This document shows positions 9,030-44,600 of a stretch of DNA of 53,345 nucleotides, one piece after another. A model generated the notes under the pieces. It was not told the origin of the DNA, searched no databases, and was given only the letters and a program-made list of their open reading frames with translations. The stretch lies in assembly GCF_003334405.1 (NCBI RefSeq), contig NZ_QOWM01000021.1; one strand, 5' to 3'. This DNA is from Escherichia coli. GTDB lineage: Bacteria > Pseudomonadota > Gammaproteobacteria > Enterobacterales > Enterobacteriaceae. The translations under genes and the position numbers were made by a program. Numbering within the stretch: position 1 is the stretch's first letter; the number at the start of each line of letters is the position of its first letter.

Positions 9030-9175
9030 GATTCGCCTGAACATGCCTTTTTTCGTAAGTAAGCAACATAAGCTGTCACGTTTTGTGATGGCTATTAGAA
9101 ATTCCTATGCAACAACTGAAAAAAAATTACAAAAAGTGCTTTCTGAACTGAACAAAAAAGAGTAAAGTTAGTCGC

Positions 9176-9284
9176 GTAGGGTACAGAGGTAAGATGTTCT
9201 ATCTTTCAGACCTTTTACTTCACGTAATCGGATTTGGCTGAATATTTTAGCCGCCCCAGTCAGTAATGACTGGGGCGTTTTTTA
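9176..9284 (+). ncRNA. spf: Spot 42 small RNA
   Basis: gtagggtacagaggtaagatgttctatctttcagaccttttacttcacgtaatcggatttggctgaatattttagccgccccagtcagtaatgactggggcgttttttta matches the remembered 109-nt Spot 42 sequence, including the terminal hairpin CCCCAGTCAgtaaTGACTGGGG plus U-tract. Confidence 0.9.
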
Positions 9285-9309
9285 TTGGGCGAAAGAAAAG
9301 ATCCGTAAT

Positions 9310-9409: not shown

Positions 9410-10042
9410 TTATTCGCCGTCCTGCGTTTCTTCTACAGGCTGCATCTCGCTAAACCAGGTATCCAGTTTCTGCCGCAGCTTGTCCACGCCTTGTTTCTTC
9501 AACGAAGAAAACGTTTCAACCTGCACATCACCGTTAAACGCCAGTACAGCTTCACGCACCATATTCAATTGCGCTTTACGTGCGCCGCTTGCCAGTTTGT
9601 CCGCTTTGGTCAGCAGCACCAGAACGGCGATATTGCTGTCTACCGCCCACTCAATCATCTGCTGATCCAAATCTTTCAGCGGATGGCGAATATCCATTAG
9701 CACCACCAGACCTTGCAGGCTCTGACGTTTTTCGAGGTATTCGCCGAGCGCACGCTGCCATTTGCGCTTCATCTCTTCCGGGACTTCCGCATAACCGTAC
9801 CCAGGCAAGTCAACCAGACGCTTGCCGTCAGCCACTTCAAACAGGTTGATAAGCTGGGTGCGCCCTGGGGTTTTTGAGGTACGAGCCAGGCTTTTCTGGT
9901 TAGTCAGCGTGTTCAGCGCGCTGGATTTACCTGCGTTGGAACGGCCTGCAAAAGCCACTTCAATTCCGGTATCGGAAGGTAGGTGGCGAATATCAGGCGC
10001 ACTCATCACAAAATGCGTCTGTTGATAATTCAAATTAGTCAA
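9410..10042 (-). CDS. engB: Ribosome biogenesis GTP-binding protein EngB (YihA)
   Basis: 210-aa ORF with G1 motif [15 protein letters not shown], and LTKADK. Confidence 0.95.
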
Positions 10043-10312
10043 AGCGGTCGTCTCCGTCAGTCAAAGCTTTGTGGCGATTATACCTGAACCATAATAAAAG
10101 GCGGATTTTTCGGCGTGAGCGTTGTAAGTAAAAGCCATACGCTTTGTGAGACATTGCCGATAGTCTTTATGCGAAATAGCAGAGAAAATTCTGCGATGCA
10201 TGTCAAATAAGCTATATAAATCAGTGAATTGCTTTTATATAAAACTCTGAAAATGTGCAAATACTGATGGCGGTTGATTGTTTGTTTAAAGCAAAGGCGT
10301 AAAGTAGCACCC

Positions 10313-10556
10313 ATAGAGCGAGGACGCTAACAGGAACAATGACTCAGGATGAGGGTCAGGAGCGCCAGGAGGCGAAGACAGAGGATTGTCAGGAAGACAA
10401 ACGTCCGGAGACGTAATTAAACGGAAATGGAATCAACACGGATTGTTCCGGCTAAAGGAAAAACAGGGTGTGTTGGCGGCCTGCAAGGATTGTAAGACCC
10501 GTTAAGGGTTATGAGTCAGGAAAAAAGGCGACAGAGTAATCTGTCGCCTTTTTTCT
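10313..10556 (+). ncRNA. csrC: CsrC small RNA (CsrA-sequestering)
   Basis: About 244 nt starting atagagcgaggacgctaacaggaacaatgactcaggatgagggtcaggagcgccaggagg..., with about 14 GGA motifs (many as CAGGA), ending in hairpin GGCGACAGagtaatCTGTCGCC plus TTTTTT; lies between engB and yihI as expected. Confidence 0.85.
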
Positions 10557-10623
10557 TTGCTTGCTTTCTGTTAGATTCCGCCGCAAATCTATACTGAATA
10601 AAACGGCTAAAAGACGAACCATT

Positions 10624-11133
10624 ATGAAACCATCATCTTCAAACTCACGCAGCAAAGGTCATGCAAAAGCGCGTCGAAAAACACGCGAGGAGCTGGATCA
10701 GGAAGCTCGTGATCGCAAGCGTCAGAAAAAACGTCGTGGTCATGCGCCGGGCAGCCGCGCAGCGGGCGGAAACACCACGTCAGGCAGCAAAGGCCAGAAC
10801 GCACCAAAAGATCCACGTATTGGCAGTAAAACCCCTATTCCATTGGGCGTGACTGAAAAAGTCACCAAACAGCACAAACCGAAGAGTGAGAAACCTATGC
10901 TTTCACCGCAGGCGGAGTTGGAATTACTGGAAACGGATGAGCGTCTGGATGCGCTGCTGGAACGTCTGGAAGCAGGCGAAACCCTGAGTGCCGAAGAGCA
11001 ATCCTGGGTGGATGCTAAACTGGATCGTATTGATGAGTTGATGCAGAAACTCGGCCTCTCTTATGACGATGACGAAGAAGAGGAAGAAGACGAGAAGCAA
11101 GAAGACATGATGCGTCTGCTGCGGGGCAACTAA
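10624..11133 (+). CDS. yihI: Der GTPase-activating protein YihI
   Basis: ORF-track frame 10561 trimmed to ATG 10624 ([26 protein letters not shown]...), 169 aa; basic N-terminus and acidic C-terminus [14 protein letters not shown]. Confidence 0.9.
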
Positions 11134-41610: not shown

Positions 41611-44600
41611 TTACACCTTTTCCACATTCACAAGGAAGGACTTAAACTCCGGCGTCTGCGTGTTCGCATCACCAACGAATGGCGTTAAAGTATTGGCAAT
41701 AAAGCCTTTTTTAGCTACGCCTTCATAGCCCCAGTGAATCGGAATACCGATGGTATCGATATCTTTGCCGTTCGCTTTCAGCGTGCGAATACGTTTGGTC
41801 ACCACCGCTTTGGCTTTGATATAGCCACGGTTGGAGGAGACTTTCACGGTATCGCCCTGGGCAATGCCAAGTTTATTCGCCAGCGACTCCCCGATTTCCA
41901 CAAACTGCTCTGGCTGCAAAATCGCGTTCAACAGCGCGTGTTTGGTCCAGTAGTGGAAGTGCTCGGTCAGACGATAGGTGGTTCCGACATACGGGAACTT
42001 ATCGGCTTTACCCAATGCTTCGGCGTCGTCTTTAAAGATACGTGCAGCCGGGTTCGAGATAACGTTTGGATGCAGCGGGTTAGTTCCCAGCGGCGTTTCA
42101 AACGGCTCGTAGTGTTCCGGGAACGGACCTTCCGCCATCTTATCGAGGGCAAACAGACGCCCCATGCCTTCCTGCTGCATGATAAACGGCCCGACGCCGC
42201 TACCCGGAGGCGCTGCGCTGTAGTCCGGAATATCCCAGCCGGTCCACTTAGTGCCGTCCCATTTCAGCAACTGACGCTTCGGATCCCACGGGTTACCCTG
42301 CGGATCTGCGGAGGCGCGGTTATACAGAATGCGGCGGTTAAGCGGCCATGCCCATGCCCAGCCCAGCGTGTTACCGAGGCCAGACGGATCGGCGTTATCA
42401 CGGCGTGCCATCTGGTTGCCTTCCGGCGTCCAGCTACCGGCGAAAATCCAGCAGCCACAGGAGGTTGTACCGTCATCGCGCAATTGGGCGAACGAACTAA
42501 GTTGTTGGCCTTTCTTGACGATAACCGCACCGGTTGCCGGATCGGTAATATCGGCCAGCGCCTTACCGTTGCTCTCCATCGCCACTTCTTCTGAAGATGG
42601 CTCATGCGGAATGGCGTAGTTCCATGTCATGTTCAGCACCTGGTCCGGGTTCGCGCCACCCTGTTCGGCATACATCTTGCGCAAGCGCAGGAAGATACCG
42701 GAGAGGATCTCGCCGTCAGTCAGCGCAATCCCCGGGGCGTCCGCACCTTTCCAGTGCCACTGTAACCAGCGACCTGAGTTAACGATAGAACCGTTCTCTT
42801 CCGCGAAGCAGGTCGATGGCAGACGGAACACTTCGGTCTGGATCTTCGACGAGTCAACTTCGTTCAGCTCACCGTGGTTCTGCCAGAAGTTAGAGGTTTC
42901 AGTGTTCAGTGGGTCGATGGTGACGAGGAACTTCAGTTTCGACAGACAACCGATCACTTTGTTTTTGTTCGGGAATGAGGCAACAGGGTTAAAGCCCTGG
43001 CAGATATAGCCATTGACCTTGCCCTCTTTCATCATCTCGAAGTATTGCAGGACGTCGTAGCCTTTATCCCACTTCGGCAACCAGTCAAAGCCCCAGCTAT
43101 TTTCCGCCGTCGCTTTATCACCAAAGAAGGCCTTCATCATAGAGACGAAGAATTTCGGGTAGTTGCCCCAGTAGTTTACCTGGCCTTCCAGCAGCGGTTT
43201 TGGCGTGTTGGCGGTAAGGTAGGTTTGCAGATCGGTCTGCTTCTCGCTTGGCAGCGTCATGTAACCTGGCAGGCTCTGCGACAGCAGCCCCAGGTCCGTC
43301 AGCCCCTGAATATTGGAGTGACCGCGCAGGGCGTTAACGCCGCCGCCTGCCATCCCCATATTGCCGAGCAGCAGCTGGATCATCGCCATCGTACGAATGT
43401 TTTGCGCACCAACGGAGTGTTGCGTCCAGCCGAGGGCATACAGGAACGAGGCAGTTTTATCGTGAGCACTGGTTTCTGCGATGTATTCGCAGACTTTCAG
43501 GAACGCGTCTTTTGGCGTACCACAGATGTTTTCAACCACATCTGGCGTGTAGCGGGAAACGTGCTGTTTCAGCAAGTTCCACACGCAGCGCGGATGTTGC
43601 AGCGTGGTATCGCGTTTGGCGAAGCCGTTTTCGTCCAGTTCATAAGTCCAGGAGGATTTATCGTACTTGCGTTTTTCCGCGTCGTAGCCGGTGAACAGGC
43701 CATCTTCAAAGCCGTAATCCTCACGCACGATCAGGCTGGCGTTGGTATAGGCTTCGGTGTATTCGCGGTTGAATTTTTCATTGTTCAGCAGGTACAGCAA
43801 TACGCCTGACAGGAAAGCAATGTCAGTACCGGAACGAATAGGGGCATAGTAGTCAGCTACCGCCGCCGTACGCGTAAAGCGAGGATCGATCACAATCAGC
43901 TTCGCGCCGTTGTGAATTTTGGCTTCCATCGCCCAGCGGAACCCGACCGGGTGAGCTTCAGCGGCGTTACCGCCCATCACCACGACGAGGTTGGCGTTCT
44001 TGATGTCGACCCAGTGGTTGGTCATCGCACCGCGACCAAATGTTGGAGCAAGACTTGCTACCGTTGGTCCGTGTCAGACACGCGCCTGGTTGTCGACCGC
44101 GAGCATACCCAGCGCGCGGGAGAATTTTTGCGTTAAATAGCCGGTTTCGTTACTCGACGCGGAAGCACACAGCATCCCGGTGGAGAGCCAGCGGTTAACA
44201 GTCACGCCTTCGGCGTTTTGCGCAATGTAGTTAGCATCGCGGTCTTCTTTCATCAGTTTGGCGATGCGATCAAACGCCTCTTCCCAACTGATTTGCTGCC
44301 ATTTATCAGAACCTGGCGCACGGTATTCCGGAAACTTCAGACGGCTTTCGGAGTGGATGAAATCCACCAGGCCAGCGCCTTTCGGACAAAGTGCACCGCG
44401 GTTGACCGGGTGATCCGGATCGCCTTCGATATGGAAGATAGATGCTTTGGCGTTTTTTGCTCCGTCACCGAGGCTGTACATCAACAGCCCACAGCCTACG
44501 GAACAATAGGTGCAGGTATTACGGGTTTCGCGGGTGCGCAGCAGTTTATACTGCCGGGTTTCCGCGAGTGCTACGCTGGGTGCAAAACCCAGTGCCGCTG

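Follow-up and report, generated by a model that had tools for sequence, protein, structure and literature searches.

The GGA-rich region at 10313-10558 on the plus strand is the gene csrC, whose noncoding product of ~245 nt is the second small RNA of Escherichia coli K-12 that antagonises CsrA; we put the probability of this reading at about 0.99. By computation, we established the identity of the gene, its boundaries, the number of its motifs and their conservation and unpaired context, its terminator, the sequence of its UvrY site, its synteny and its lack of coding potential. The gene is already known as csrC of E. coli K-12 (Weilbacher et al. 2003, cited in PMC8151843 and PMC7652899), and nothing about it is new.

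The region matches CsrC over its full length

To place the region among known RNA families, we scanned the whole stretch of DNA analysed (53,345 bases, hereafter the window) with Rfam 15. RF00084 (CsrC) matched at 10313-10566 on the plus strand with 278.7 bits (E = 5.3e-88; gathering score 61), CsrC being the best-scoring Rfam family here within clan CL00106. The match covers positions 1-255 of the 255 in the model, is not truncated and carries posterior probabilities of ~1 throughout. It extends to 10566 because the model takes in the downstream T-rich flank. Furthermore, a 4,001-bp stretch of MG1655 (NC_000913.3) is present exactly in the window, whose position 1 corresponds to MG1655 4,040,724. 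The ncRNA csrC of that record (b4457, 'small regulatory RNA CsrC', 4,051,036-4,051,281) coincides with window positions 10313-10558 and is identical over all 246 nt:

10313-10558, plus strand: csrC transcript, 246 nt (RF00084, MG1655 annotation, folding energy)

An initial annotation had named the region csrC and proposed an Rfam search; the name is borne out both by that search, with its full-length CsrC match, and by the 100% identity to b4457. The boundaries it had given, 10313-10556, agree with the annotation at the 5' end and stop 2 nt before the annotated 3' end at 10558. Compared with CsrC of E. coli K-12, the sequence (100%), the 5' end, the flanking genes, the terminator and the upstream UvrY site are all alike, and we found no difference.

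A 601-bp query around csrC found a match in each of the 5,426 complete E. coli genomes, with 100% identity in many, and the csrC RNA itself was present in 5426 of 5426. With these two queries, a few E. coli genomes gave a second partial match, and two matches were located on plasmids. In strain Z1322HEC0002 (NZ_CP148581.1, 2851858-2852107), csrC is 87.3% identical to that of K-12, every other genome reaching at least 95%; this strain is possibly a cryptic-clade or misassigned Escherichia.

GGA motifs are concentrated on the csrC strand

A direct count gave exactly 14 GGA motifs within the 244 nt from 10313 to 10556, spaced 6-32 nt apart and starting at the following positions:

Plus strand: GGA at 10322, 10333, 10347, 10359, 10368, 10383, 10392, 10407, 10423, 10429, 10440, 10457, 10487 and 10519

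Ten of the 14 are preceded by A (AGGA) and six read CAGGA, so that the earlier description 'often CAGGA' was fair. The complement, TCC, occurs only twice in the same 244 nt against 14 GGA, and the enrichment is therefore strand-specific. Over all 244-nt segments of the 53,345 bases, the background averages 3.1 GGA (sd 1.9) on the plus strand and 2.8 on the minus strand. Fourteen is the maximum on both strands of the 53 kb and is reached at the csrC locus alone. The estimate of about 14 motifs in 244 nt, far above background, thus proved exact. The next-best segments hold 12 motifs inside yihQ, 11 inside yihI and 11 opposite glnA, all in coding sequence. Under a Poisson distribution, the probability of at least 14 motifs (λ = 3.13) is 5e-6, or ~0.002 when allowing for ~437 segments. 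Scored against the SELEX consensus RUACARGGAUGU, the csrC sites match at 4-8 of 12 positions each, a moderate agreement that does not help to rank them.

Such a density could also be read as a chance by-product of a purine-rich intergenic region without function. A first-order Markov model trained on the csrC region itself, and hence carrying its dinucleotide content, produced 8.7 GGA on average and 14 or more in 4.3% of simulations. The GGA excess over the region's own purine-rich dinucleotide composition is modest, although this control is partly circular, because the GGA motif and its repeats create that very composition.

GGA number and position are conserved among csrC homologues

Species-representative genomes (298 Gb) were scanned with the most conserved 16-mer, AGCGCCAGGAGGCGAA, and homologues were picked by nhmmer and then aligned. 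Among the matches listed, ~100 of 120 loci were chance matches in unrelated G+C-rich genomes, because a 16-mer pattern is too short for 298 Gb. We obtained at least 16 csrC homologues, of which one belongs to a further E. coli strain and the other 15 to seven genera (Citrobacter, Enterobacter, Kosakonia, Pluralibacter, Pseudescherichia, Superficieibacter and Pseudocitrobacter) and one MAG, which together with the window gave 17 sequences; the set is small, biased towards an identical core sequence and without Salmonella, Klebsiella and Yersinia. Every one of the 17 sequences contains 13-15 GGA motifs. For 12 of the 14 sites in E. coli, all 17 show a GGA at most a few columns away. With the search seed and the terminator excluded, mean column identity was 0.92 for GGA and 0.73 for other unpaired columns (p = 1.4e-7).

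These data speak against chance, as seven genera share GGA count and positions but differ in the unpaired bases around them. The full-length covariance-model match to CsrC, the ratio of 14 GGA to 2 TCC, a folding z-score of -6.2 (see below) and the presence of the RNA in every complete E. coli genome argue in the same direction. Conservation among the homologues settles the reality of the GGA enrichment despite the Markov caveat. The chance explanation is refuted by the RF00084 match, the GGA conservation in homologues and the column identity test, and we assign it no probability.

Most GGA motifs are unpaired in the csrC fold

With csrC as the identity of the region, its structured parts were delimited as follows:

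10322-10521, plus strand: GGA-rich body with candidate CsrA-binding sites (count, consensus structure, conservation)
10518-10557, plus strand: Rho-independent terminator with an 18-pair stem (7 G-C pairs), a 4-nt loop and a U-run (terminator scan)

Projection of the Rfam consensus structure onto the sequence placed six of the 14 GGA motifs in hairpin loops (10322, 10347, 10368, 10383, 10407 and 10487), five in single-stranded linkers (10333, 10359, 10392, 10423 and 10429) and three at or in helices (10440, 10457 and 10519, the last buried in the terminator stem). The latter three may not be functional sites. In this consensus, 86% of the GGA bases are unpaired compared to 54% of all csrC bases. 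A thermodynamic ensemble calculated independently of Rfam gave a mean unpaired probability of 0.63 for GGA bases and 0.41 overall. The initial annotation had expected the motifs in hairpin loops and had named a missing Rfam match with paired GGA motifs as the outcome that would speak against csrC. We found the Rfam match and 11 of 14 motifs unpaired, yet five of these lie in linkers rather than loops and three further motifs touch helices.

The fold itself is stable and conserved. The minimum free energy of csrC is -85.4 kcal/mol compared to -58.1 kcal/mol for shuffled sequences (z = -6.2). Across the 17 sequences, the Rfam structure is retained in 89.2% of cells, as opposed to 40-47% when the 3' partners were slid by 1-3 columns. 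The terminator is invariant or nearly so in all 17, helix 10 being paired in 98.9% of cells. Compensatory changes occur in six pairs of the Rfam CsrC structure, e.g. A-U to G-C at the base of hairpin 1 in seven sequences and U-A to C-G in hairpin 5 in three. Covariation lends the Rfam structure real but modest support, given how similar the homologues are (mean column identity 82%) and that the tested structure derives from a family with E. coli among its members.

RNAalifold predicted a helix that is absent from the Rfam CsrC consensus, in which the four bases at 10450-10453 (GGCU) pair with 10478-10481 (GGCC) on the plus strand. It crosses the long 3'-domain helix of Rfam (10433-10445 with 10463-10475). 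The four pairs are formed in 95.6% of cells, compared to 12-57% in slid controls, and two of them show compensatory changes (G-C, C-G and U-A in one; U-A and C-G in the other). Covariation is stronger here than in the conflicting Rfam helices, which are 76-81% paired; this comparison is subject to selection bias, as the helix has few pairs and the alignment that served to predict it also served to test it. It would represent a second conformer, or else the CsrC family structure would need correcting. If the helix is true, the accepted 3'-domain fold would be wrong, or the domain would switch between two conformers.

csrC is a discrete transcription unit between yihA and yihI

The following genes flank csrC:

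9410-10042, minus strand: yihA (engB), divergent upstream neighbour (NCBIfam TIGR03598 'ribosome biogenesis GTP-binding protein YihA/YsxC', 252 bits)
10624-11133, plus strand: yihI, downstream neighbour on the same strand (NCBIfam NF003560, 169 bits)

We take engB to be a synonym of yihA. With yihA divergent and yihI co-oriented, the engB-yihI location that had been called canonical for csrC is indeed the one observed. Of the homologous csrC loci, 16 of 16 have a co-oriented yihI downstream, and the 14 that reach far enough all have yihA upstream in the opposite orientation. A published survey (PMC1488887) gives this yihA/yihI context for the csrC genes of E. coli, Salmonella, Shigella and Yersinia and describes it as invariably tied to csrC homologues.

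The conserved position in front of yihI could mean that the stretch is no independent sRNA but the 5' leader of yihI, i.e., a CsrA-responsive cis-regulatory UTR with read-through. The start of yihI lies 65 nt downstream on the same strand, an order kept in all 16 loci, and a promoter scan of 10559-10623 found no separate consensus yihI promoter. Against this stands the invariant 18-bp G+C-rich stem with its U-run, which closes the transcript at 10557/10558, and a discrete RNA of ~245 nt is given both in the curated MG1655 record and in publications (PMC8151843, PMC7652899). Any read-through of the terminator into yihI would supplement the function of the sRNA and not replace it. We therefore regard a mere leader as very unlikely and csrC as a gene of its own.

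Spot 42 (spf) is encoded just upstream of yihA on the plus strand (Rfam RF00021 at 9166-9286, 122.8 bits; annotated at 9176-9286). The MG1655 record places spfP, the 15-codon ORF of this dual-function RNA, at 9194-9241. Thus, csrC and Spot 42, two global regulatory sRNAs, lie at most 1.4 kb apart. Weak UvrY/SirA crosslinking near spf has been reported (Zere et al., PMC4682653).

The scan of the window returned further RNA elements. ES222 (17495-17602, plus strand, 135.3 bits) lies between glnA and bipA, directly upstream of bipA, and STnc370 (19492-19560, plus strand, 55.6 bits at a threshold of 54) overlaps the stop and 3' end of bipA; both are without annotation in MG1655. GlnZ, an sRNA from the 3' UTR of glnA, is annotated in MG1655 at 15705-15898 on the minus strand, a position at which no Rfam family reached its gathering score in the whole-window scan. 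SECIS_3 (44021-44079, minus strand, 84.3 bits), a selenocysteine insertion element, was matched within fdoG, in keeping with the product of this gene, the selenoprotein formate dehydrogenase O alpha subunit. Three plus-strand matches to naRNA4 (RF02564, 75-77 bits) are presumably REP-type extragenic repeats, one in the hemN-yshB intergenic region (12810-12887) and two in tandem near the end of the window (53158-53228 and 53250-53320).

The upstream region carries a weak core promoter and the UvrY site

A scan of 10040-10640 for consensus sigma-70 promoters returned no site. Manual scoring of hexamers and comparison with published sequences yielded the following elements:

10300-10305, plus strand: likely -10 hexamer TAAAGT (-13 to -8; manual hexamer scoring)
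10278-10283, plus strand: best candidate for the -35 hexamer, TTGTTT, a poor one with a 16-nt spacer (manual hexamer scoring)
10145-10162, plus strand: UvrY-binding imperfect inverted repeat TGTGAGACATTGCCGATA, -168 to -151 from the 5' end (exact match to the published sequence)
10123-10128, plus strand: half-site TGTAAG, 16 bp upstream of the inverted repeat (exact match)

TAAAGT is likely the -10 element of csrC, as judged from its sequence and position, and a weak core promoter of this kind would fit an activator-dependent gene. In csrC, the inverted repeat and the half-site lie within the UvrY ChIP-exo region from -223 to -143 and are protected by UvrY from DNase I (Zere et al., PMC4682653). 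Both the repeat and TGTAAG are identical here to the footprinted site, a comparison made at the level of sequence. A 78-codon ATG ORF on the minus strand (10078-10314) runs across the csrC promoter and UvrY region; without an NCBIfam match or an annotation in MG1655, it is probably spurious.

No reading frame is conserved in csrC

RefSeq annotation by PGAP lists no ncRNA at the csrC position. Instead, it carries a pseudogene CDS at 10339-10505 on the plus strand ('hypothetical protein; frameshifted; internal stop'). Among the matches listed for the 5,426 complete E. coli genomes, which include re-annotations of K-12, a 'hypothetical protein' underlies csrC in all rows, and only the curated NC_000913.3 record carries ncRNA csrC. 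This call appears to be a systematic artefact of annotation that originated in a spurious protein, a translation of the GGA-rich RNA.

Taken at face value, the feature would imply that the region encodes a small protein, either from the 25-codon ORF at 10339-10416 (MTQDEGQERQEAKTEDCQEDKRPET) or as the pseudogene product at 10339-10505, with GGA/AGGA being Shine-Dalgarno-like or codon-driven. Besides the frameshifted PGAP CDS found over csrC in RefSeq E. coli genomes, several ORFs of 15-39 codons on the plus strand of csrC and the neighbouring Spot 42, now annotated as dual-function and encoding SpfP, could be cited for it. The comparison of homologues points the other way. Only E. coli and Superficieibacter have an ATG at 10339; six of six Citrobacter sequences read ACG there, and the remaining homologues lack the start codon. 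The frame is disrupted by indels in Citrobacter R56, Superficieibacter and Pluralibacter and interrupted by stop codons in Pseudocitrobacter and Enterobacter asburiae. The conservation of a QERQEAKT peptide is merely apparent and reflects the invariant nucleotide core. Moreover, the PGAP feature is itself flagged as broken, and the curated MG1655 record holds an ncRNA and no CDS. Since neither ATG, frame nor stop of the 25-codon ORF is conserved and no ORF is common to the 17 sequences, we rejected the small-protein reading as extremely unlikely.

A related possibility is that CsrC is dual-function in E. coli, like Spot 42 with SpfP, and also encodes the acidic 25-residue peptide of 10339-10416, which we consider very improbable. 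If it were true, CsrA on the AGGA at 10332-10335 would gate translation of the peptide.

A model for CsrA sequestration by CsrC

The following account takes CsrA binding, sequestration of CsrA, activation by UvrY and turnover through CsrD/RNase E from the literature. BarA-UvrY activates csrC synthesis (PMC4682653). Phosphorylated UvrY on the inverted repeat ~160 bp upstream would activate the weak core promoter, and the resulting transcription would end at the strong intrinsic terminator. The body presents its 14 GGA motifs mostly in the loops of short hairpins of 4-6 bp or in the stretches that connect these hairpins.

CsrA dimers bind single-stranded GGA with a preference for short hairpin loops (SELEX consensus as above) and bridge two sites 10-63 nt apart (PMC7652899). 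The spacing of 6-32 nt found here is compatible with dual-site bridging by several dimers. As a dimer with its two RNA-binding surfaces could bridge two GGA sites, one CsrC would therefore tie up several CsrA dimers. The number of CsrA sites is given as 18 for CsrB and 14 for CsrC (PMC8151843), and a CsrA CLIP-seq peak has been observed on CsrC in vivo (PMC5694010). CsrB and CsrC sequester CsrA from lower-affinity mRNA targets (PMC7652899; PMC5694010); CsrC would thus compete CsrA away from lower-affinity mRNA leaders and relieve CsrA-mediated regulation.

RNase E, PNPase and CsrD are all needed for the decay of CsrC, for which unphosphorylated EIIA-Glc is the trigger (PMC7652899). On a preferred carbon source, unphosphorylated EIIA-Glc would bind CsrD and lead to decay of CsrC by RNase E and PNPase. 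By analogy to CsrB, the entry site of RNase E may be the unstructured stretch that immediately precedes the terminator (about 10499-10517).

Relation to other CsrA-binding RNAs

CsrB (Rfam RF00018, clan CL00106) is the major CsrA sponge of E. coli and likewise sequesters CsrA through GGA sites in hairpin loops. As with CsrC, its synthesis is activated by BarA-UvrY via an upstream 18-nt inverted repeat and its decay depends on CsrD and RNase E (PMC4682653, PMC7652899). CsrB differs from CsrC in its yqcC/syd locus and its higher number of sites (18 vs 14; PMC8151843), and also in a near-perfect UvrY palindrome and an IHF site, no counterpart of the latter being apparent at csrC (PMC4682653). The two sequences cannot be aligned by homology search (PMC1488887).

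RsmX, RsmY and RsmZ of Pseudomonas and RsmB of Pectobacterium are similar in that they are GGA-repeat decoys titrating proteins of the CsrA/RsmA family under the control of GacS-GacA, the BarA-UvrY orthologue (PMC1488887, PMC7652899). Unlike CsrC, they have unrelated sequences and other genomic contexts, and their species are without CsrD, their sRNAs being long-lived (PMC7652899).

Significance

Experimental work on CsrC goes back to 2003, the gene is curated in MG1655, and the RNA has its own Rfam family; its identification here thus advances no open question. In the PGAP-annotated complete E. coli genomes inspected, the broken-pseudogene label set in place of ncRNA csrC can mislead analyses that rely on annotation. 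The value of the finding lies in quality control, as a textbook regulatory RNA was recognised correctly from motif density and gene context alone.
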